IMG/VR virus record: IMGVR_UViG_2609460344_000011
Coordinates: 1 to 8,704 of that record
Source: a virus
Taxonomy: Duplodnaviria > Heunggongvirae > Uroviricota > Caudoviricetes
DNA length: 8,704 nt
Strand: one strand, 5' to 3'
A model generated the notes under the pieces. The model worked only from the letters and a program-made list of their open reading frames with translations. It ran no database searches and was not told the origin of the DNA. Each line of letters opens with the position of its first letter. Position 1 is the first letter of the stretch. Of this stretch, positions 1 to 8,704 are shown piece after piece. The position numbers were made by a program, and so were the translations under genes.

Positions 1-86
1 TTTCCACCCCTGTACGTCTCACCACCTATATGGTCGTGGAAAGCCTTGGTGGTGAGTTCATTGAATTCAACATAGGGGCTGTCACC

Positions 87-632
87 ATGACTACTCTCCC
101 AACCCAATCTCACCCTGAAATCACGATTATCAATGGTCGCGTTGTCACCACATCTCTTGCAGTAGCTAATTACTTTACTAAACGGCATGAGCGGGTTTTA
201 GATAGAATTAGAAACCTCGAATGTTCCGCTGAATTTACTGAACACAATTTTGTGTTAAGTGAATACACCGACGCATCAGGCCGCAAACTCCCTTGTTACC
301 AAATCACCCGCGACGGTTTTGCGTTTCTTGCCATGGGCTTCACTGGTAAACGTGCTGCCCGGTTCAAAGAGGCATACATAAATGCCTTTAACCAGATGGA
401 AAAACTGCTTTCAAAGCCATCCACGCTGAGCGATGCCGCAGATAACGCCAGCGTGCTTTACTCCCACCTGTCGGTAATCCACAAGGTCTGGCTGCAGCAG
501 CTTTATCCCATGTTGGCAAAAGCCGAATCCCCGCTGGCTGTAAGTCTGTATGACCGCATCAACGACGCGGCGCTACTGGCCAGTCTCATAAATTTGTCGC
601 TGAACCCTTCAGAGGTAAGGGGGCGTAAATGA
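87..632 (+). CDS. Rha-family phage regulatory protein (antirepressor-like)
   Basis: ATG at 87 preceded by GGGG (75-78). The ORF is open from 30, but the N-terminus MTTLPTQSHPEITIINGRVVTTSLAVANYFTKRHERVLDRIRN fits the Rha-domain pattern recalled from memory. Stop TGA 630-632 overlaps the next ATG. Confidence 0.65.
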   Translation: MTTLPTQSHPEITIINGRVVTTSLAVANYFTKRHERVLDRIRNLECSAEFTEHNFVLSEYTDASGRKLPCYQITRDGFAFLAMGFTGKRAARFKEAYINAFNQMEKLLSKPSTLSDAADNASVLYSHLSVIHKVWLQQLYPMLAKAESPLAVSLYDRINDAALLASLINLSLNPSEVRGRK

Positions 633-853
633 TCCGGAATATTTTCAAACGGTTTACCAATCATACTTTCTGTTGTCCTCGTCCGGGTCAGTGGTACACC
701 ACGCCTGCAGGGCATGTTCTACGTGTTAGCCTGGTTGACCGTGAATGTCAGAAGGTGATTTGTGAACCGCTGGGCCGTAATTACCGCGTCAGTATGCCGC
801 TTATAGCCTTTTGCTCCGGAAAAAACATGAAGCATCTCGGAGGTGCTGCATGA
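629..853 (+). CDS. hypothetical small protein (74 aa), translationally coupled between Rha and the O-like gene
   Basis: ATG 629 overlaps the upstream stop (ATGA). Purine-rich SD-like GAGGTAAGGGGG at 611-622. Its stop TGA 851-853 overlaps the next start at 850. No recognisable domain. Confidence 0.45.
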   Translation: MIRNIFKRFTNHTFCCPRPGQWYTTPAGHVLRVSLVDRECQKVICEPLGRNYRVSMPLIAFCSGKNMKHLGGAA

Positions 854-1668
854 GTATGGAGTTGATGGTTAAAGCGATGAAAATTCGAGTGGGAAATCCA
901 TTGCGAAAACTGGTTCTGATTAAGCTGGCTGATAATGCCAGCGATCAGGGTGAGTGCTGGCCCAGCTATCAGCATATCGCTGATCAGTGCGAGATTAGCA
1001 AACGTTCTGTGATGAATCATATTGCGGCCCTCTGTGAGTCCGGGCTGGTAAAAAAAGTCACCCGGAAAGGTGAAAAAGGTAACTCAAGTAATATCTATCT
1101 CCTTCATCTGGATGGTGCAGGAGATTCACTAGGGGGTAGTGCAAATAATTCACTATCTGGTGCAGCAAATTCACCAGGTAGTGCAGGAGTTGCACCAGGG
1201 GGTAGTGCAGGAGATTCACCCAGAACCAGTCACTCTTTTGAACCAGTCAAAGAACCAGTCAATGAACCAATAGCTGTTGGTGAATCTGCTGATGAGTCTG
1301 TGCGAGTTCGTTCAAACCGACCGGAATACTCTCCGGAGTTTGAGCAGGCATGGCTGGCATACCCCAAACGTGCTGGTGGCAATTCAAAATCTGCAGCCTT
1401 CAAAGCCTGGAAAGCCCGTTTGAATGAGGGGGTAAACCCCGAAACCATGCTGGAAGGTGTGAAACGCTACGCGGGCTGGGTATCTGCGATGGGTAACAGC
1501 GGCACACAATTTGTGAAACAGGCTGTCACGTTCTTTGGTCCGGATCGTCATTTCGAAGAATCCTGGGAAGTTCCTGCGGTATCTGCAGCCAGACGCGAGG
1601 ACCCGTACTTCAAAGCCAGTTACGACAACGTGGACTACAGCCAGATCCCGGAAGGATTCAGGGGGTGA
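850..1668 (+). CDS. lambdoid replication initiator O-like protein (N-terminal HTH domain, Gly/Ser/Ala linker, C-terminal domain)
   Basis: ATG 850 with GGAGG at 838-842. N-terminal segment LRKLVLIKLADNASDQGECWPSYQHIADQCEISKRSVMNHIAALCESGLV matches the helix-turn-helix typical of phage O-type replication protein N-termini. A low-complexity linker follows, encoded by iteron-like DNA repeats. Confidence 0.65.
   Translation: MSMELMVKAMKIRVGNPLRKLVLIKLADNASDQGECWPSYQHIADQCEISKRSVMNHIAALCESGLVKKVTRKGEKGNSSNIYLLHLDGAGDSLGGSANNSLSGAANSPGSAGVAPGGSAGDSPRTSHSFEPVKEPVNEPIAVGESADESVRVRSNRPEYSPEFEQAWLAYPKRAGGNSKSAAFKAWKARLNEGVNPETMLEGVKRYAGWVSAMGNSGTQFVKQAVTFFGPDRHFEESWEVPAVSAARREDPYFKASYDNVDYSQIPEGFRG
1111..1221. 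repeat. iteron-like direct repeats inside the O-like gene (candidate replication origin)
   Basis: GTGCAGGAGATTCAC occurs at 1115-1129 and 1205-1219. GGGGGTAGTGCA occurs at 1132-1143 and 1198-1209. ATTCAC recurs at 1124, 1148, 1169 and 1214, giving a roughly 21-24 bp period. Further degenerate copies (GGTAGTGCAGGAG at 1177) lie between. Confidence 0.4.
1240..1271. repeat. short tandem repeat GAACCAGTCAA x2 plus a partial copy, encoding EPVKEPVNEP
   Basis: GAACCAGTCAA at 1240-1250 and 1252-1262, then GAACCAA at 1265-1271, immediately 3' of the iteron-like block. Confidence 0.4.
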
Positions 1669-1670
1669 TC

Positions 1671-2159
1671 ATGAGTCTTTTGAATGAAGTTCAGAAATTC
1701 ATTGAAGCCCATCCGGGGTGTACTTCCGGAGACATTGCGGATGCTTTTGCAGGTTACTCACGGCAGCGCGTTCTGCAGTCAGCAAGCAAGTTACGTCAGA
1801 GTGGGCGTGTGGCTCACCGTTGTGAAGGAGATACACGCAGACATTTCCCGCGCCTGACTGAGAGAGCACAGGAGCCGGAACCACAACCAGTTCGTGAAAC
1901 CAGACCTGTGCGCAATTTCTGTGTCGGCACTAACGACCCGCAGGTGATTTTGTGCCTGACTCGCCAGGCGGAAGAACTGGAGTCCAGGGGCTTATTCCGT
2001 CGAGCTGCAACGGTGTGGATGGAGGCATTCCGTGAAAGCCACTCCCAGCCAGAACGAAACAATTTTCTGGCGCATCGTGAGCGGTGCTTACGGAAAAGCA
2101 GCAAGCGCGCTGCATCGGGTGAAGAGTGGTATCTGTCAGGGAATTACGTGGGGGCTTAA
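1671..2159 (+). CDS. PerC-like transcriptional regulator domain protein with N-terminal winged-helix-like region
   Basis: ATG 1671 with AGGGGG at 1659-1664; the upstream stop TGA 1666-1668 lies just before it. C-terminal segment ESRGLFRRAATVWMEAFRESHSQPERNNFLAHRERCLRK fits the recalled PerC/Pch signature (GLxRRAAxxW ... RRxxC). The N-terminal half looks like a small wHTH. Confidence 0.5.
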   Translation: MSLLNEVQKFIEAHPGCTSGDIADAFAGYSRQRVLQSASKLRQSGRVAHRCEGDTRRHFPRLTERAQEPEPQPVRETRPVRNFCVGTNDPQVILCLTRQAEELESRGLFRRAATVWMEAFRESHSQPERNNFLAHRERCLRKSSKRAASGEEWYLSGNYVGA

Positions 2160-2812
2160 TGAGTAATAAATATTGCCAGGCGCTGGTGGAGCTGCGGAAC
2201 AAACCAGCCCATGAACTGAAGGAAGTGGGCGATCAGTGGCGCACGCCGGACAACATTTTCTGGGGAATTAACACCCTGTTTGGCCCGTTTGTTCTGGATC
2301 TGTTCACTGATGGTGATAACGCCAAATGTGCCGCTTATTACACTGCGGAAGACAACGCGCTGGCGCATGACTGGTCTGAACGTCTTGCGGAGCTTAAAGG
2401 TGCTGCCTTTGGTAATCCCCCGTACAGCCGCGCCAGTCAGCATGAGGGGCAATACATCACCGGCATGCGTTACATCATGAAACATGCCAGTGCCATGCGT
2501 GATAAAGGCGGGCGCTATGTTTTCCTGATCAAAGCTGCCACCAGCGAAGTGTGGTGGCCGGAAGATGCAGATCATATTGCTTTTATTCGCGGGCGTATTG
2601 GTTTTGAACTGCCTGCCTGGTTTATCCCGAAAGACGAAAAGCAGGTGCCAACAGGTGCTTTCTTCGCTGGTGCTATTGCTGTTTTCGACAAGACCTGGAA
2701 GGGACCGGCAATCAGCTACATAGGGCGCGATGAACTTGAGGCATGTGGTGAGGCGTTTCTGGCGCAGGTTCGCCAGCAGGCGGAAAAACTGGTCAGGGAG
2801 ATGGCGGCATGA
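2159..2812 (+). CDS. phage Dam-family N6-adenine DNA methyltransferase
   Basis: ATG 2159 overlaps the upstream stop TAA 2157-2159, with a G-run at 2150-2154. Contains the GNPPY catalytic-type motif (N/DPPY class) and overall resemblance to phage N-6-adenine methyltransferases. Confidence 0.75.
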   Translation: MSNKYCQALVELRNKPAHELKEVGDQWRTPDNIFWGINTLFGPFVLDLFTDGDNAKCAAYYTAEDNALAHDWSERLAELKGAAFGNPPYSRASQHEGQYITGMRYIMKHASAMRDKGGRYVFLIKAATSEVWWPEDADHIAFIRGRIGFELPAWFIPKDEKQVPTGAFFAGAIAVFDKTWKGPAISYIGRDELEACGEAFLAQVRQQAEKLVREMAA

Positions 2813-3135
2813 CGACATTAACTCAATGCCAGCAGCAGGTGCTGGATATGCTGATTTCTTATCAGAAAGAACGTGGCTTCCCGCCAACCAATCAGGAGGT
2901 GGCAACCATGCTGGGATACCGTTCGGTGAATGCAGCGGTGGAGCATCTTCGCGCACTGGAGAAAAAAGGTGTCATCACGATAAAGCGTGGCGTGGCCCGG
3001 GGTATCACTCTTCATACCGCGGTGAAGGACGACGACAGCGAGGCGGTCGGGATTATCCGCGCCCTGCTTGCCGGTGAGGCAAACGCCAGGCTGCGTGCAG
3101 CCCACTGGTTACATGAGAGGGGCCTGAAAGTATGA
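2809..3135 (+). CDS. LexA N-terminal DNA-binding domain homologue lacking the S24 peptidase domain
   Basis: ATG 2809 overlaps the upstream stop (ATGA). Residues 1-68 align without gaps to the E. coli LexA N-terminal domain as recalled: LTxxQQxVxDxI ... GxPPTxxExAxxLGxRSxNAAxEHLxALxxKGVIxI ... RGIxL. The protein ends at 108 aa with no catalytic Ser/Lys domain. Confidence 0.75.
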   Translation: MTTLTQCQQQVLDMLISYQKERGFPPTNQEVATMLGYRSVNAAVEHLRALEKKGVITIKRGVARGITLHTAVKDDDSEAVGIIRALLAGEANARLRAAHWLHERGLKV

Positions 3136-3527
3136 AGCTAATACTGCCTTTTCCGCCCAGCGTGAACACGTACTGGCGACACCCCAACAAAGGGGCGTTT
3201 GCTGGTAAGAGCCTGATAAGCGCGGCGGGGCGAAAATTCCAGAGCGCGGCGTGTGCAGCAATAGTTGAGCAGTTACGTCGTCTGCCGAAACCAACGTCGG
3301 CACCTGCTTCAGTGGAGATCGTGTTGTTTCCTCCGGATAACCGGATCCGCGATCTGGACAACTATAACAAGGCGCTGTTTGACGCCCTGACCCACGCGGG
3401 TGTGTGGGAAGACGACAGTCAGGTGAAAAGAATGCTGGTGGAGTGGGGACCGGTTATCCCGGAGGGGAAGGTCGAGATCACTATCAGTAAGTACGAAAAA
3501 GCGAGTTGCAAATTAGCAACTCGGTAA
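3132..3527 (+). CDS. rusA: RusA-family Holliday junction resolvase (crossover junction endodeoxyribonuclease)
   Basis: ATG 3132 overlaps the upstream stop (ATGA), with GAGAGGGG upstream. N-terminal LILPFPPSVNTYWR and the acidic core DLDNYNKALFDALTHAGVWEDDSQV match RusA family signatures. Confidence 0.85.
   Translation: MKLILPFPPSVNTYWRHPNKGAFAGKSLISAAGRKFQSAACAAIVEQLRRLPKPTSAPASVEIVLFPPDNRIRDLDNYNKALFDALTHAGVWEDDSQVKRMLVEWGPVIPEGKVEITISKYEKASCKLATR
3502..3523. repeat. perfect 8-bp inverted repeat CGAGTTGC-N6-GCAACTCG at the 3' end of rusA
   Basis: CGAGTTGC (3502-3509) and GCAACTCG (3516-3523) are exact reverse complements. No U-tract follows, so it is more likely an operator or RNA stem than an intrinsic terminator. 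Confidence 0.35.
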
Positions 3528-3572
3528 CGGAATTGAGCAACACCCTAAATTTGGGTATTACCTCGTTAAAGA

Positions 3573-3592
3573 TACTGTATTTATGAACAGTG
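3573..3592. promoter_or_regulatory. LexA (SOS) box, consensus CTGT-N8-ACAG
   Basis: TACTGTATTTATGAACAGTG: CTGT at 3575-3578, an AT-rich 8-nt spacer, ACAG at 3587-3590. Candidate sigma70 elements TTGATA (3598-3603)-N17-TAAGTT (3621-3626) lie immediately downstream, before the KilA-N gene start at 3690. Confidence 0.7.
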
Positions 3593-3689
3593 TATCCTTG
3601 ATAACTATTAAAAATCGCAGTAAGTTCATCCTGCATCAACGAAAAGGGAGTGCAGTCCCGCTCGTGGATAAAAATTTGTGGAGAAACCA

Positions 3690-4505
3690 ATGAATCAGTT
3701 GCTTGTAATTGATGGCGTTTCTGTGCGTCAGTACTTCGAATCTAACTACTGTCTTAACGACCTTCAGAAAGCTGCTCTTCTTGCCGCTGGTGAGAATCGC
3801 TCCTCCCGTTCGCTGGAAGTTCACGAGTTTATGCGTCGTCCTGAAACGAAGGCTCTTGTGGAATTATTGGAAGAAGAAACTACGGGAGATTCCCGTAGTA
3901 TTCCTGTCATCACCATTCAGGGGCGCAATGGTGGGACGTATGTCTGTAAAGAGCTGGTCTATGCATATGCAATGTGGATCAGCCCGGCATTCAGCTTAAA
4001 AGTGATACGTACTTTTGATGCGCTTCATAATTCATCACCAGAAGAAACCACATCCGACAAAATTAAATCCGGGGTCATTCTGCTTGAATCAGCAGCAAAG
4101 ACTCTAAATCTGTCAAACTCCTCGAAACTTGGTGCATACCAGAAATTATCAAAGGTAGCTGGTCTTCCTGAACTTATGCCGATCTATGCCATTGATGCAC
4201 CTGCTGATGCGCCAGATGGTTCAAGCCGCCCTACGCTGTCGCTGAGTGCACTGCTGAAGCAGTATGGTATCCGCCTGACGGCTAATCAGGCATATCACCA
4301 GATGGCGAAGCTGGGGATCGTTGAACAACGCGAACGATACAGCCGTACCGCGATTAACAACATCAAAAAATTCTGGTCGCTGACCGCGAAAGGCTGCATG
4401 TTCGGCAAGAACATCACCAGTCCTGCAAATCCGCGCGAGACGCAGCCGCATTTCTTCGAATCCCGATTTCCTGAGCTGTTAAAGCTGCTCGATACCGTTC
4501 ATTGA
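3690..4505 (+). CDS. KilA-N domain protein, probable SOS-controlled antirepressor-like protein
   Basis: ATG 3690 with GGAG at 3680-3683. The N-terminal 110 aa (YCLNDLQKAALL ... IQGRNGGTYVCKELVYAYAMWISPAFSLKVIRTFDAL) fit the KilA-N domain pattern. Preceded by the LexA box. Confidence 0.7.
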   Translation: MNQLLVIDGVSVRQYFESNYCLNDLQKAALLAAGENRSSRSLEVHEFMRRPETKALVELLEEETTGDSRSIPVITIQGRNGGTYVCKELVYAYAMWISPAFSLKVIRTFDALHNSSPEETTSDKIKSGVILLESAAKTLNLSNSSKLGAYQKLSKVAGLPELMPIYAIDAPADAPDGSSRPTLSLSALLKQYGIRLTANQAYHQMAKLGIVEQRERYSRTAINNIKKFWSLTAKGCMFGKNITSPANPRETQPHFFESRFPELLKLLDTVH

Positions 4506-4506
4506 G

Positions 4507-5502
4507 GTGACTGTGAGAGCACTACTGACCCCTGAAATTGCCCCGCGTATGGGGATCGTATTGTTCAGGCCAGGTTCAGAGCTGATGCCCCTGTTTATGC
4601 AGGGGCGTGTCCTGCTGGAGCCTGAGCCGGAGCGTTATTCATCTTTCGCCAGTGGTGCCGTTCCGGCGGCATCACAACCGCTGGCGGATGATCCTGCCGT
4701 TCGGGCCGTGTTCCGCCATGAGGCAGTGATCCGTCGTGCTGGTGGCGTGGAATGTCTTGAAAGCTGGTTACTTCGTGAAAAAGGCTGCCAGTGGCCTCAT
4801 TCCGGATGGCACAGCGAGAACATGACCACAATGCGACACGCTCCGGGCGCAATCCGTCTGTGCTGGCACTGCGATAACCAGCTGCGCGATCAGTTCACGG
4901 AACGGCTGGAATCAATGGCAACGGATAACTGTGCCCGCTGGGTGTTGTCTGTTGTGCGTCGGGATCTCGGTTTTGATGACAGTCACGTTGTGACAATGCC
5001 GGAACTGTGCTGGTGGCTGATTCGTAATGACCTGGCGGATGCCTTACCGGAAAGTGCAGCCCGTAAGGCACTGAGATTACCGAAGCCTGTTGTGCCGTCT
5101 GTCACCCGGGAAAGTGACCTTGTGCCTTCGGTTCCTGCCACCAGCATCATCCAGGATAAAGCGAAAAAGGTGCTGGCGCTGAAAGTGGATCCGGAGTCGC
5201 CGGAGTCTTTTATGTTACGCCCCAAACGTCGCCGCTGGGTTAATGAAAAGTACACGCGCTGGGTTAAGACGCAGCCGTGTGCATGTTGTGGAAAGCCTGC
5301 TGATGATCCCCACCACCTGATAGGCCACGGTCAGGGGGGAATGGGTACAAAAGCGCATGACCTCTTCGTGCTGCCTTTGTGCAGAAAGCATCACGACGAG
5401 CTGCATGCGGATACCGTGGCATTTGAAGAGAAGTATGGCTCCCAGCTGGAGCTGATATTTCGTTTTATCGATCGTGCGCTGGCAATAGGCGTGCTGGCCT
5501 GA
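4507..5502 (+). CDS. DUF968-family protein with C-terminal HNH-like Cys/His motif
   Basis: C-terminal CACCGKPADDPHHLIGHGQGGMGTKAHDLFVLPLCRKHHDELH resembles the DUF968 family found next to Q in E. coli prophages. The start is uncertain: GTG 4507, GTG 4513 or ATG 4549, none with a strong SD. Confidence 0.6.
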   Translation: MTVRALLTPEIAPRMGIVLFRPGSELMPLFMQGRVLLEPEPERYSSFASGAVPAASQPLADDPAVRAVFRHEAVIRRAGGVECLESWLLREKGCQWPHSGWHSENMTTMRHAPGAIRLCWHCDNQLRDQFTERLESMATDNCARWVLSVVRRDLGFDDSHVVTMPELCWWLIRNDLADALPESAARKALRLPKPVVPSVTRESDLVPSVPATSIIQDKAKKVLALKVDPESPESFMLRPKRRRWVNEKYTRWVKTQPCACCGKPADDPHHLIGHGQGGMGTKAHDLFVLPLCRKHHDELHADTVAFEEKYGSQLELIFRFIDRALAIGVLA

Positions 5503-5519
5503 TTTTGTGGAGAAAGTTG

Positions 5520-5891
5520 ATGCGTGATATTCAAATGGTTCTTGAACGTTGGGGGGCATGGGTGGCAAATAATCACGAGGATGTGGAATGGTCATCTGTT
5601 GCTGCAGGTTTTAAGGGATTAATTCCTTCGAAAGTAAAATCCCGCCCGCAATGTAGCGATGACGATGGCCTGATCATTAGCTCTGCGATGACAGTTCTTA
5701 AGAAAAAGGAACCGTATCAATACGAATTACTGGAAATGTATTATGTGTATGGGGTTACATTACGGGTGTTGGGGGTAAAACTGGGGATATCACTTAATCA
5801 GGTTGTTATCAGACTGCAGAAAGCTGAAGGGTTTATTGACGGTTGTCTGGCAATGTTGGGGGTATCTTTAGAAATTGATTGTTACATATAG
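5520..5891 (+). CDS. Q-like late-gene antiterminator (small, about 123 aa, quuD-type)
   Basis: ATG 5520 with GGAGA at 5509-5513. The size, the position after rusA/DUF968 and before the tRNA cluster, and the N-terminal MRDIQMVLERWGAW match my recollection of small Q antiterminators of E. coli prophages. Family assignment is from memory, not a search. Confidence 0.55.
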   Translation: MRDIQMVLERWGAWVANNHEDVEWSSVAAGFKGLIPSKVKSRPQCSDDDGLIISSAMTVLKKKEPYQYELLEMYYVYGVTLRVLGVKLGISLNQVVIRLQKAEGFIDGCLAMLGVSLEIDCYI

Positions 5892-5930
5892 TAATAAATT
5901 CAATCAAAGTAAATAATCATATTTTATTAT

Positions 5931-5963
5931 AACCTCCTGATGATACCTGTTCATTGGGAGGTT
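5931..5963 (+). promoter_or_regulatory. inverted repeat AACCTCC-N19-GGAGGTT that can sequester the Shine-Dalgarno of the downstream gene
   Basis: AACCTCC (5931-5937) is the exact reverse complement of GGAGGTT (5957-5963). The right arm contains the SD (GGGAGG 5956-5961) of the ATG at 5967. Candidate -10 hexamers TATTAT/TATAAC at 5925-5933. Confidence 0.35.
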
Positions 5964-5966
5964 ATT

Positions 5967-6584
5967 ATGGATAAAAATGTAGAGCATGTATTAGTTGATG
6001 CAATTGAAAATAAGCAATCTTTAACAGTCGTTTACTTAGGAGGGAGCCAGCCCGGAACATTAAGGAATATTTCTCCGATTAGTATAAATGGGGATAAATT
6101 GCGGGCAAGATGCCATAGTTCTGGAGCAGTAAAGGTTTTCAATCTTGGGAAAATACAGTTACCCAGTGACTCCTGCGCGGTATCTATGCACTATGGAGAT
6201 TTAGAAGTTAAAGCTTATGAGACGATGCAGAGCGTAAATGACAACTTTCATGCCCTTTATCCTGAAGGACGATGGGGTGTTGATTTTAATGAGCATCGCT
6301 TTGCTTTATTTGATTTTTTTAAAAACGGGAAACGAAAAAAAACGGCATTTATGGCAATTGAGTTCAGGGAAAGAGATGAAGAGAAAATAATAACAGGTGT
6401 AACAATTGATATTGGTATATCTGGAACAGTGATTTCTGAGAAGTCCCGAATCCCAAAAAGACGACCATGGGTAGTGGTTGGTCCCGAACACGGAGAATAC
6501 AGTACTTATTCAACTTTGGACAAGGCTGCTACAGCGTTTTTTGAGAGGCTTTCGTTGATAGCATCCGGCCTGGAAGATAATTGA
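5967..6584 (+). CDS. hypothetical protein (205 aa), AT-rich accessory gene of unknown function
   Basis: ATG 5967 with a perfect GGGAGG SD at 5956-5961; an alternative ATG at 5940 has no SD. No family recognised. Markedly AT-rich relative to the upstream genes (by eye). Hand count: 11 of 12 Arg codons are AGA/AGG/CGA/CGG and 6 of 14 Ile codons are ATA. Confidence 0.6.
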   Translation: MDKNVEHVLVDAIENKQSLTVVYLGGSQPGTLRNISPISINGDKLRARCHSSGAVKVFNLGKIQLPSDSCAVSMHYGDLEVKAYETMQSVNDNFHALYPEGRWGVDFNEHRFALFDFFKNGKRKKTAFMAIEFRERDEEKIITGVTIDIGISGTVISEKSRIPKRRPWVVVGPEHGEYSTYSTLDKAATAFFERLSLIASGLEDN

Positions 6585-6716
6585 TTTTATGTTTGGTATT
6601 CAGAGTTCGCCGTGCTTAAGAAAGTCAAGATTCTAAAAATACTGAATGAGCTACTTGTGTTATAACAAAAATGCTATTAGTGTGTTAAGAGTGGTTACTT
6701 CGCCACACAACTTAAC

Positions 6717-6738
6717 CCCGCCACTGAGCGGGTTTTTT
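6717..6738 (+). terminator. intrinsic terminator
   Basis: Stem CCCGC (6717-6721) / GCGGG (6728-6732), loop CACTGA, followed by T6 (6733-6738). Confidence 0.6.
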
Positions 6739-6788
6739 GTACCTGTAAACTTGGTGCAGTACAGTAAACACGCTGGTGGTCGTGAATA

Positions 6789-6815
6789 CTGGCTTTTTAT
6801 CTTGCTGGCTTTTTA
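6789..6815. repeat. 11-bp perfect direct repeat CTGGCTTTTTA x2 (candidate regulator-binding site)
   Basis: CTGGCTTTTTA at 6789-6799 and 6805-6815, a 16-bp centre-to-centre spacing, about 50-75 bp upstream of the ATG at 6863. Confidence 0.35.
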
Positions 6816-6862
6816 GACAAGAGTTATTGGTATGTCACGTTAACCGGAAAGGGTAAAAAGAC

Positions 6863-7060
6863 ATGCTGAAACAGCAGGATATGACAGAAACCGCCAGAGT
6901 TGTGTTTGATGAATTAAGCGTTACCGAACCGGCGACAGTCGGGGAGATTGCGCAGAATACTTACCTTTCACGCGAACGCTGCCAGTTAATACTGACCCAG
7001 CTTGTTATGGCGGGTCTGGCAGACTATCAGTGCGGTTGTTACAGACGCCTTCAGTCCTGA
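6863..7060 (+). CDS. hypothetical small protein (65 aa), possible winged-helix (PapI/FaeA-like) DNA-binding protein
   Basis: ATG 6863 with a weak purine-rich stretch GGAAAGGG upstream. A helix-turn-helix-like segment ATVGEIAQNTYLSRERCQLILTQLVMAGL. Bracketed by intrinsic terminators. Assignment is tentative. Confidence 0.4.
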   Translation: MLKQQDMTETARVVFDELSVTEPATVGEIAQNTYLSRERCQLILTQLVMAGLADYQCGCYRRLQS

Positions 7061-7073
7061 AGGCTTTTTATTT
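7047..7073 (+). terminator. intrinsic terminator overlapping the stop codon of the 65-aa ORF
   Basis: Stem GCCTTCA (7047-7053) / TGAAGGC (7058-7064), loop GTCC, followed by TTTTTATTT (7065-7073). Confidence 0.55.
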
Positions 7074-7194
7074 GTGGTGAATGGGCGGCTGGTGGGGGGG
7101 CGACACCTGTCAGTCCTTTGCTTATGTGTTGATGATAATTTACCTTTTGGGGCTATAATTGAGCTAACCAATTGCTAATGAAAGTAAAATTATA

Positions 7195-7908
7195 ATGGCT
7201 GTTGTCTGTTCAGTTATCATGGTTTGCTCCCCAATTAATATTTTTCTTGAAAAGGATACGTTGTCACTTAAGCCAGGCTCAGTTGTTCTGGCCACCAAAT
7301 GCATCAGGGAGCTTTTCCTTATGCATTATGGCAAAGTTAAAATTGTCGATATAAGCGAATCCGTCGTAAGTCAATATCTGGAAAGTCAGCATAAGCTGAC
7401 GAGGACTCGTCTGACTGACATTCCGCTTTACCTGTTGCTGGAACCCAACAATCCTGCGTTGGCTGCGGCTTTAATTACCAGCCAGGGATTTTCCGGAGAG
7501 GCCACGGATATGTTTCTTATGATGGCCTGCCTGTCTCTGTTTGAAACAGATGAACGGATGTCATTGTTTTTAAGTGGATGTTTATCCAGCATAAGTGCCA
7601 AAGTCAGGGCGATAATTCAGACAGATATATCAGCAAGCTGGACGCTTGGTGCGATTGCTCTACAGTTGCATATGAGTGAGAGTTTGTTAAAGACAAAACT
7701 GAAAAATGAAGGGGGCATGTTCAGTCGCTTGTTGCTGGAAGAGCGGATGCGTGTTGCTGTAAATATGTTATGTTCCCGGCATGGATATGGACAGGCTATA
7801 GCAGAAAAATGCGGTTATTCAAGCAGGTCCTACTTTATTTCTGTATTTCACCGCTATTATGGCTTCCCGCCAGACAGATATGTATCCAGGCAAGGGCTTG
7901 ATTATTGA
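7195..7908 (+). CDS. AraC-family transcriptional regulator (AppY/GadX/YdeO/Rns-like)
   Basis: C-terminal AraC-type HTH (WTLGAIALQLHMSESLLKTKLKNEGGMFSRLLLEERMRVAVNMLCSRHGYGQAIAEKCGYSSRSYFISVFHRYYGFPP). N-terminus MAVVCSVIMVC resembles the AppY-like subgroup as recalled. AT-rich, with 5 AGG, 1 AGA and 5 ATA codons by hand count. No clear SD; an alternative start is ATG 7219. Confidence 0.7.
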   Translation: MAVVCSVIMVCSPINIFLEKDTLSLKPGSVVLATKCIRELFLMHYGKVKIVDISESVVSQYLESQHKLTRTRLTDIPLYLLLEPNNPALAAALITSQGFSGEATDMFLMMACLSLFETDERMSLFLSGCLSSISAKVRAIIQTDISASWTLGAIALQLHMSESLLKTKLKNEGGMFSRLLLEERMRVAVNMLCSRHGYGQAIAEKCGYSSRSYFISVFHRYYGFPPDRYVSRQGLDY

Positions 7909-7936
7909 TTTTCATCTGATTATTATTTTTTGGCTC

Positions 7937-8012
7937 GGCCCTTTAGCTCAGTGGTGAGAGCGAGCGACTCATAATCGCCAGGTCGCTGGTTCAAATCCAG
8001 CAAGGGCCACCA
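7937..8012 (+). tRNA. tRNA with anticodon CAU, most likely tRNA-Ile2 (lysidine, reads AUA); generic annotation would be tRNA-Met
   Basis: Hand-folded cloverleaf: acceptor GGCCCTT/AAGGGCC, D-arm GCTC/GAGC, anticodon loop CTCATAA, T-arm GCTGG/CCAGC with TTCAAAT loop, encoded CCA. Close to E. coli ileX as recalled. Confidence 0.8.
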
Positions 8013-8019
8013 TCACATA

Positions 8020-8096
8020 CCGCCATTAGCTCATCAGGAAAGAGCGCCAGCCTTCGAAGCTGGCTGCGCGGGGTTCAAGTCCCCGATGGCGGTCCA
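8020..8096 (+). tRNA. tRNA-Arg, anticodon UCG (reads CGA/CGG)
   Basis: Acceptor CCGCCAT/ATGGCGG, D-arm GCTC/GAGC, anticodon stem CCAGC/GCTGG with loop CTTCGAA, T-arm CGGGG/CCCCG with TTCAAGT loop, encoded CCA. The C1-G72 first pair is unusual but the fold is complete. Confidence 0.75.
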
Positions 8097-8109
8097 TTAT
8101 CTGCATCAT

Positions 8110-8186
8110 GCGTTGTTAGCTCAGCCGGACAGAGCAATTGCCTTCTAAGCAATCGGTCACTGGTTCGAATCCAGTACAACGCGCCA
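8110..8186 (+). tRNA. tRNA-Arg, anticodon UCU (reads AGA/AGG), argU-like
   Basis: Acceptor GCGTTGT/ACAACGC, D-arm GCTC/GAGC, anticodon stem ATTGC/GCAAT with loop CTTCTAA, T-arm ACTGG/CCAGT with TTCGAAT loop, encoded CCA. Confidence 0.8.
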
Positions 8187-8200
8187 CACTTATTTTCCCT

Positions 8201-8227
8201 GGCTCGCTTTTGCGGGCCTTTTTTTTT
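8201..8227 (+). terminator. intrinsic terminator downstream of the tRNA cluster
   Basis: Stem GGCTCGC (8201-8207) / GCGGGCC (8212-8218) with one G-U pair, loop TTTT, followed by T9 (8219-8227). Confidence 0.65.
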
Positions 8228-8439
8228 AAATGTCTCACAATTCAGGCGGTTGACTGTTGTCTGGTTTGCGGGGAGTTTGTTAAAAGAAACTGGCATGGTG
8301 AATCCCCCTGTGCGGAGGGGCAATCAGCAACTGGTGTTTTGTCACCGACCCTTATCCTTTCTGTGCGGGTTCAGGTGCTGATACTGAACTCACCGGGAGG
8401 CACCCGGCACCATGCAATGGCACATAGCGCCACTCTCCA

Positions 8440-8463
8440 GCCCCTCTCCGGAGGGGCTTTCTT
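8440..8463 (+). terminator. GC-rich hairpin with weak T-rich tail (possible attenuator or terminator)
   Basis: Stem GCCCCTC (8440-8446) / GAGGGGC (8451-8457), loop TCCG, followed by TTTCTT. Confidence 0.35.
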
Positions 8464-8469
8464 ATGGAC

Positions 8470-8497
8470 AAAAAAATCCCGCGCTGGGAGACGCGGG
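8470..8497 (-). terminator. candidate minus-strand intrinsic terminator
   Basis: Stem CCCGCG (8478-8483) / CGCGGG (8492-8497) with an 8-nt loop, preceded on the + strand by A7 (8470-8476). On the minus strand this reads hairpin then U7. Confidence 0.35.
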
Positions 8498-8691
8498 CGG
8501 CAAGGAATAAACAACAAAACGTGAAGTAATATTTCAGTTGGCGAATAATATCCGACAGTAATCACTCTGCGCAATAGCGCGGCCTTTTTCGTATTGCGGG
8601 CTGTTGTCTATCTTCTGCCATTATCCTGTAACTTCCGGACTTCAGCCCGCTCCTCATTTTACTCACAATATTATCCAGGCCGGGAGGATTC

Positions 8692-8704
8692 ATGGCATTT
8701 AAAC
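8692..8704 (+). CDS. 5' end of an unidentified gene running out of the window (begins MAFK)
   Basis: ATG 8692 preceded by GGGAGG at 8681-8686 with 5-nt spacing. Only 4 codons are visible. Confidence 0.3.

Follow-up and report, generated by a model that had tools for sequence, protein, structure and literature searches.

In the phages SPP1 (gene 38, oriL) and TP901-1 (rep) of Gram-positive bacteria, DnaD-like or helix-turn-helix (HTH) initiators bind repeats that lie inside their own genes. In phage lambda, the Phage_rep_O domain of the O protein covers aa 22-115, and four iterons are encoded at aa 116-144 with a spacing of 20/24/23 bp, followed by an A+T-rich tract (PMC7466680; also computed here). 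The locus described below is of a similar kind. It lies in an 8,704-nt stretch of lambdoid prophage DNA (positions 1 to 8,704 of the IMG/VR record IMGVR_UViG_2609460344_000011; hereafter the window), in which an array of iterons and an adjoining invariant block are embedded in the coding sequence of a replication-initiator gene. The segment at about 1113-1275 is probably, with a chance of roughly three in four, the replication origin of this prophage, contained within the gene of its own initiator. In the iteron plasmids RK2, F and pPS10 the Rep proteins (TrfA, RepE and RepA, respectively) bind one strand of the unwinding-element 13-mers in a sequence-specific manner (PMC4081077).

The iteron array and the initiator that encloses it

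Five exact copies of a 15-bp dyad, GTGCA-N5-TKCAC, are found at 1115-1219 with a spacing of 24/21/21/24 bp. These are iteron 1 (GTGCAGGAGATTCAC, 1115-1129, with an extended 19-bp site TGGTGCAGGAGATTCACTA at 1113-1131), iteron 2 (GTGCAAATAATTCAC, 1139-1153), iteron 3 (GTGCAGCAAATTCAC, 1160-1174), iteron 4 (GTGCAGGAGTTGCAC, 1181-1195) and iteron 5 (GTGCAGGAGATTCAC, 1205-1219). Iteron 4 is a perfect 5-N5-5 palindrome with zero mismatches on both strands, and the start of iteron 5 precedes the first GAACCAGT in the invariant core by 18 nt. When both strands are searched with at most one mismatch, 11 iteron matches are detected against 1.47 expected, a number reached by 0 of 200 dinucleotide shuffles. 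Tandem Repeats Finder (TRF) likewise reports arrays of period 21/24, and an additional array of period 12 at 1240-1269.

The first-pass annotation of this DNA had already listed parts of the array, and its observations are reproduced here: a 15-bp repeat GTGCAGGAGATTCAC at 1115 and 1205 (90 bp apart), a 12-bp repeat GGGGGTAGTGCA at 1132 and 1198 (66 bp apart), and four copies of ATTCAC (1124, 1148, 1169 and 1214), the only ones in the window. The tandem repeat GAACCAGTCAA that it had mentioned as following the array is present at 1240/1252, but far from being an appendix it belongs to the element that is best conserved in the locus. A possible degenerate sixth site (GTGAATCTGCTGATG, 1280-1294) was suggested by inverted-repeat hits. 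Only the left half of this site is present, beyond the core as seen from the iterons, and ST64B does not conserve it. The evidence for it is weak. A lone iteron-like site with one mismatch (GTGTATCTCCTTCAC) occurs at 1822-1836 (-), within a PerC-like gene, which is at chance level.

The gene that contains the array (850-1668, + strand, 272 aa) encodes a winged-HTH (wHTH) domain at the N-terminus (aa 1-87; 850-1110, +), a Gly/Ser/Ala/Pro-rich linker (aa 88-145) and a C-terminal domain (aa 143-272; 1276-1668, +). The position of the repeats in a Gly/Ser/Ala-rich linker, as proposed in the first-pass annotation, was borne out: the iterons occupy aa 89-124 and the core aa 125-142. The N-terminal domain, delimited by HTH_36 and DnaD_N alignments, is presumed to bind the iterons. 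It matches Pfam HTH_36 at aa 17-67 (E 1.8e-11, 44.1 bits, cut-off 25) and, below threshold, DnaD_N at aa 22-85 (24.3 bits, cut-off 27). Its profile also finds weak matches to wHTH proteins of the GntR/MarR type and to the DnaD N-domain 2vn2, and a recognition helix is predicted at about aa 49-60 (ISKRSVMNHIAA). Almost the whole protein (aa 3-271) matches PHROG 270, "replication initiation protein" (E 1.1e-88). By these profile matches the protein is a member of the HTH_36 / PHROG 270 phage replication initiators. The C-terminal domain was delimited by its matches to PHROG 26426 ("replication protein") and PHROG 1701 ("DnaD-like helicase loader") and is presumably a module for helicase or primosome recruitment. 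For this domain no Pfam or PDB sequence match was found, and for the whole protein no homologue of solved structure was found by sequence.

The likeness to the origin of lambda (and to those of the Stx phages 933W and P27) lies in architecture. The array occupies the central part of the initiator gene, immediately behind the sequence for the N-terminal DNA-binding domain. A relatively A+T-rich block comes next, then the rest of the linker and a C-terminal recruitment domain. Origins of the lambda type contain 4-6 directly repeated sites, each about 18-19 bp long and dyad-symmetric, at intervals of about two helical turns. In the window, repeats with dyad symmetry and about the same spacing, at least four in number, are found between the DNA-binding and C-terminal domains. 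The proposal in the first-pass annotation that lambda-like origin iterons reside in the linker-coding part of the gene is thus supported, with origin activity predicted. Its description of the gene as "O-like" holds for the architecture but not for homology: the initiator has an HTH_36 domain rather than Phage_rep_O, and alignment of its N-terminal profile to lambda O with hhalign gives a probability of 6%, and homology to lambda O was rejected. No PF04492 match was found at E <= 0.01, whereas lambda O itself scores 5.7e-36.

The locus differs from lambda in other respects as well. There is no P-type loader gene downstream in the window, and neither a loader nor a helicase is listed in the record of a whole phage with this initiator, for which the PLSDB table is incomplete. 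The block behind the iterons is a sequence-invariant GAACC array and not a strongly A+T-rich tract. In contrast to lambda, binding and origin activity are predicted here from sequence. The resemblance to iteron plasmids is that initiator-specific iterons adjoin a block of short direct repeats, and by analogy the GAACC repeats with their 12/17-nt spacing may be the counterpart of the plasmid 13-mers. Unlike in iteron plasmids, the predicted origin is intragenic, DnaA boxes are not in excess, and the repeats have 42% GC. No match to a Rep_3/WH1-WH2 protein, which would mark an iteron-plasmid replicon, was found in the window. As to the DnaD-like initiators of Gram-positive phages, the link is limited to the sub-threshold DnaD_N and weak 2vn2 matches of the N-terminus; the repeats, the core and the hosts differ.

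A mechanism can be proposed on the model of lambda. Dimers of the N-terminal wHTH domain would bind the five pseudo-palindromic iterons (T-R-GTGMA-N5-TKCAC-C-A), which would lie on one face of the DNA because they are two helical turns apart. The bound iterons would build a nucleoprotein complex similar to the "O-some" of lambda, and this complex would destabilise or present the adjoining GAACC block (1222-1275, spacing 17/12/12), which is constant whatever the iteron type. The C-terminal domain would then recruit the replicative helicase. This is presumably host DnaB with DnaC, since no helicase, loader or primase gene was found in the window. The gene at 850-1668 is the only recognisable replication gene of the early region. 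The gene that follows the initiator in relatives is for a helicase of the DnaB type, a primase-helicase or a P-like loader, or for none of these, as in the window. This pattern fits an initiator with exchangeable recruitment domains. Each step of this scheme is deduced from sequence comparisons, from iteron binding by the protein and the opening of strands at the core to the recruitment of a helicase and the origin activity as such.

Selection on DNA and not on the linker peptide

Homologues were collected in three ways: by TBLASTN against phage genomes (loci L001-L014), by an exact-pattern scan of viral contigs for the GAACCAGTCA block, and by scanning 185,579 species genomes with two N-terminal peptide patterns alone, which gave 80 loci (L135-L214). 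The last set is unbiased with regard to the repeats, as the linker played no role in selecting its loci. In all, about 200 sequences were compared, and iteron spacing was counted in 118 non-identical genes with 544 sites. The same GTGMA-N5-TKCAC motif is found at the same place in 3-7 copies in relatives from Pseudomonas, Enterobacter, Rahnella, Aeromonas, Marinomonas and Shewanella. The distance between neighbouring sites is always 21-24 nt (21 in 165 cases, 22 in 37, 23 in 44 and 24 in 160). Bases outside the search pattern are also conserved (T in 88% at -1, C in 72% at +16, and also A at +17), and the site is therefore a 19-bp dyad, T-R-GTGMA-N5-TKCAC-C-A.

The five iterons of the window are all in one reading frame and encode a low-complexity segment. 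The repeats might therefore merely reflect a flexible Gly/Ser/Ala/Pro linker that arose by in-frame duplication and has no function at the DNA level, an alternative which had also been raised in the first-pass annotation. The homologues speak against it. At 93 of the 544 sites the motif is inverted (GTGAA..TGCAC) and the peptide SESPAP replaces SAGDSP. A further 48 sites are in another frame, so that GTG CAG GAG ATT CAC is read as VQEIH (VQEIHQ for SAGDSP); where the spacing is 22 or 23 nt, the next site necessarily falls in a different frame. The same nucleotides thus encode unrelated peptides. A duplex site for a dimer survives inversion and a change of frame, while a peptide repeat does not, and selection therefore acts on the repeat DNA rather than on the linker peptide. 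The comparison of DNA with peptide conservation suggested by the first-pass annotation accordingly came out on the side of DNA: the nucleotide motif and its 21-24 bp phasing are kept while the peptide changes. Other subfamilies have unrelated linker peptides (PMPPKS, PSDKMSP, GGAGAA, SENFAL), and these are again encoded by 3-5 dyad-symmetric DNA units at 21-24 bp. Synonymous sites are kept more than replacement sites. The peptide-repeat reading is already contradicted by these sequences and appears very improbable. The repeats are best read as protein-binding sites at the DNA level, with the initiator as the predicted ligand.

The type of iteron follows the predicted recognition helix (aa 49-60) with no exception among the sequences compared. 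Helices of the form x[ST][KRE]RS[VA][MIQ]NH are paired with 3-7 GTGMA-N5-TKCAC sites. Proteins with the helices SKSAVR, DRSTVR, SRSTVK, SKTSVR or ..MRH have none of these sites and possess other dyads instead (TGCCA-N5-TGGCA, TGTAGGCCCAGAAAGCACA, GGGCA-N5-TGCCC, GTGAC-N5-GTCAC). This association is supportive and not proof, because shared descent of adjacent DNA contributes to it. The locus would be a case of dual coding, in which an array of predicted protein-binding DNA constrains part of its own presumed ligand, the linker. An antisense open reading frame (ORF) of 53 aa with a repetitive peptide (LLHYPLV...) at 1058-1219 (-) is most likely a by-product of the array, since relatives with a spacing of 22/23 nt are expected to break it.

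Dyad sites that change with the recognition helix indicate binding specificity and not replication as such. The sites might therefore be operator-like elements for the encoded HTH protein or another regulator (in autoregulation, as a roadblock or in copy control), with replication starting elsewhere. Iterons of plasmids act in autoregulation as well, and no strongly A+T-rich tract adjoins the repeats. On the other hand, the protein family is annotated and built as a replication initiator with exchangeable domains, followed by helicase, primase or loader genes. The place of the array in the gene copies that of the lambda origin exactly, and there is no promoter-like site near it. An operator would have no evident use for the invariant and relatively A+T-rich block, which keeps a constant 18-nt register to the last iteron. 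Sites that are operator-like and have no part in an origin are the chief alternative left, and an unlikely one.

A hypothetical mRNA element, that is, a structure or binding site for translation or stability of the initiator transcript, could draw on the dyad units, which may form small hairpins, and on conservation that is independent of coding. The RNA at 1105-1295 folds no better than shuffled sequences (z = -1.3), and the core as single-stranded DNA gives z = -0.02. Rfam finds no match at the element, only tRNAs and STnc100 elsewhere in the window. Moreover, inverted copies keep the duplex site and not the RNA sequence. Such an element is scarcely credible.

The invariant core and the GAACC block

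The iterons are followed by a family-wide invariant core of 28 nt at 1222-1249 (AGAACCAGTCACTCTTTTGAACCAGTCA), which encodes the peptide RTSHSFEPV and contains two GAACCAGTCA decamers 17 nt apart. The core overlaps the array of 12-nt period (GAACCAGTCAAA / GAACCAGTCAAT / GAACCAATAGCT, 1240-1275), the presumed region of strand opening or helicase entry. GAACCAGTCA occurs at 1223, 1240 and 1252 and GAACC also at 1264, which gives the spacing of the block as 17/12/12. The core is carried by at least 120 viral contigs. It is near-invariant from E. coli to Pseudomonas, Vibrio and Shewanella, synonymous sites included, and in the set selected by N-terminal patterns 68 of the 80 loci have 3 or fewer mismatches in 28 nt. 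GAACC-like units are found at +1, +18 and +30 in all 73 core-bearing loci, and in 33 of them a further unit is at +42. The GC content of the block does not leave 42-45% even when that of the gene reaches 58%, a point in favour of the origin. The last iteron starts 18 nt ahead of the first GAACCAGT in 90 of 111 genes.

The conservation of the core goes beyond that expected from its peptide. Third-position entropy is 0-0.5 bit in its nine codons; for most of the invariant N-terminal residues with four-fold degeneracy (Gly, Ala, Val, Pro), the corresponding figure from the same set of sequences is 1.6-2.0 bit. The mean information is 1.75 bit/nt in the core versus 0.54 at third codon positions of the N-terminal domain. 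Most substitutions in the core change the amino acid (F to S/L/P, T to I, H to N, P to S). Three reading frames are used for the decamer AACCAGTCA, which yields EPV and RTSH within one gene and NQS in mEp044. In four Shewanella/Parashewanella loci both decamers read EPV and are 15 nt apart. A copy in Erwinia tracheiphila (L176) has the core, though not in frame, within a truncated ORF of 118 aa and probably belongs to a decaying prophage.

Seven unrelated clusters of C-terminal domains follow the core. Stx2_14040 (L012, "Eru7") has the same C-terminal domain as the window protein with a different N-terminus, and possesses neither the core nor iterons of the window type. The core therefore belongs with the HTH_36 N-terminal domain and the iterons. 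The N-terminus of Stx2_14040 has no Pfam match and is unrelated to that of the window; by eye, its linker (~700-870) seems to contain repeats of the GGGAAAC type, perhaps another type of origin. In distant relatives, with 30-41% identity in the N-terminus, the iterons are followed by three units of 12-nt period with a different unit sequence. Examples are Psychrobacter phage Y8A (L217), with GAACCTATCAAT x3 at the place of the core, and Vibrio phage 252E42.2 (L218), with CCTAAC-N6 x3. E. coli phages with about 97% identity differ by one in their count of 12-nt GAACCAGTCAAA units: PhiR63_1 has one more (SFEPVKEPVKEPVNEP) and Stx2c_EH0430 one fewer (SFEPVKEPIAVG; loci L013 and L014).

The start of unrelated C-terminal domains right after the core, together with this gain and loss of single units, would also be seen if the core were mainly a recombination junction for swapping N- and C-terminal modules and the 12-nt tandem were slippage-prone DNA. 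Exchange of modules accounts for mosaicism and not for purifying selection. It leaves unexplained the internally repeated decamer, its reading in three frames, the fixed offsets in all 73 loci and the 18-nt register with the last iteron, as well as the 12-nt triplet of another sequence at the same place in distant relatives. As the principal role of the core a junction is quite improbable, while the roles of junction and origin core are not mutually exclusive.

A wider proposal is that AGAACCAGTCAC-N6-GAACCAGTCA-N2-GAACC (+1, +18, +30) is an undescribed universal "origin core" of HTH_36 phage initiators in Gammaproteobacteria, degenerate beyond them. It would be read, as double-stranded or single-stranded DNA, by a conserved part of the initiator or by a host replication protein, with the iterons setting replicon specificity. 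This proposal is tentative, its chances being judged slightly short of even. If it is true, one short motif would locate the origin in thousands of prophages, groups of compatible replicons could be predicted from the types of iteron and helix, and the reach would include Shiga-toxin phages that are not lambdoid (Eru5, Eru6 and possibly further types).

Several observations weigh against the placement of an origin at 1113-1275. The 55 nt after the iterons have 42% GC versus 50% in the gene (45% versus 58% in G+C-rich hosts), but the duplex stability of the core is just about 1 standard deviation below the mean of the window. A classical A+T-rich unwinding element is not evident, because the least stable stretch nearby (1071-1110) lies to the left of the iterons, where it codes for conserved wing residues, and its counterpart looks, by eye, G+C-richer in Pseudomonas relatives. 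DnaA boxes are at background level in the window (18 matches versus 18.2 expected), with none beside the array, and no relevant sigma-70 promoter or terminator was found near it. The joint change of helix and iteron could partly reflect the shared descent mentioned above. A literature search found no experimental account of binding or origin activity.

That search covered phage names, the topics of iterons, lambdoid phages and initiators, and the literal strings TSHSFEP, GAACCAGTCAC and GTGCAGGAGATTCAC. It returned no description of this origin, though Weigel & Seitz 2006 (FEMS Microbiol Rev) may mention such modules. None of the phage or E. coli records among the matches listed annotates an origin here. 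Origins with iterons within the initiator gene of a phage are textbook elements, and for this initiator family a description of the origin was not found. The family-wide invariant core is the part with the best chance of being new. The locus offers a clean natural case of dual coding, with frozen synonymous sites and one decamer read in three frames.

Gene context and the Eru6 replication type

The window covers the early-right to late-regulatory part of a lambdoid prophage. The initiator gene is preceded by a Rha gene (87-632; Pfam/ORF scan) and a small ORF (629-853). Eru6 is defined by a Rha protein followed by an HTH_36 protein downstream of cI (PMC8951638). The first two are found here in this order and cI lies outside the window. 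Over 600-1900 the window is 97.8% identical to the Eru6 reference Stx2a_WGPS2 (AP012537.1), and gene order and identity both place it in the Eru6 replication type of Shiga-toxin phages. The typing work sorts regions by gene content alone and reports a complete lack of knowledge on the replication proteins of Eru phages (PMC8951638); the two papers defining the Eru types mention neither iterons nor an origin. The initiator region is about 98% identical to annotated replication proteins or genes of phages SfV and mEp460 and to the matching regions of Stx2a and Stx2c phages. The exact module is present in 925 of 5,426 complete E. coli genomes (about 1 in 6), where PGAP labels the gene merely "helix-turn-helix domain-containing protein".

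The module drives viable phages (SfV, mEp460) as well as Stx2a and Stx2c Shiga-toxin phages. With a located origin and its specificity determinants, phage replication and the amplification of toxin genes after induction become testable. The same applies to replicon incompatibility between co-resident prophages and to Eru-type plasmids analogous to lambda plasmids.

Directly 3' of the initiator gene lies a gene for a PerC-like (YfdN-like) regulator (1671-2159), followed by a Dam methylase gene and a gene for a protein of 108 aa that consists of the LexA DNA-binding domain only (2809-3135). The latter lacks a peptidase domain, and its gene overlaps the stop of Dam and the start of RusA. RusA, KilA-N, DUF968 and antiterminator Q come next, in this order. 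Between Q and a cluster of three tRNA genes (Met(CAT), Arg(TCG) and Arg(TCT); 7937-8186), an AraC-family regulator is encoded at 7195-7908. PerC-like and AraC-family regulators are types known from virulence-modulating prophages. Just 3' of the tRNA genes there is a full-length Rfam match to the sRNA STnc100 (8264-8469, +, 143 bits). The invariant core imposes on the initiator gene, at 1222-1224, the Arg codon AGA, which is rare in E. coli and is read by tRNA-Arg(UCU). The phage tRNA cluster includes Arg(TCT), possibly by coincidence.

In a circular whole-phage record of 44.6 kb (L216, NZ_CP148393.1) no second replication gene is annotated, in a PLSDB gene table that is incomplete. This and other whole phage genomes with the initiator, in records of 38-48 kb, have been deposited as circular non-mobilizable plasmids. 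Hosts of such plasmid-type records are E. coli, Klebsiella, Shewanella and Microbulbifer, and there are also ten Arsenophonus records of 28-104 kb. Because whole phage genomes appear in this circular, non-mobilizable form, the deposits suggest that episomal forms exist.

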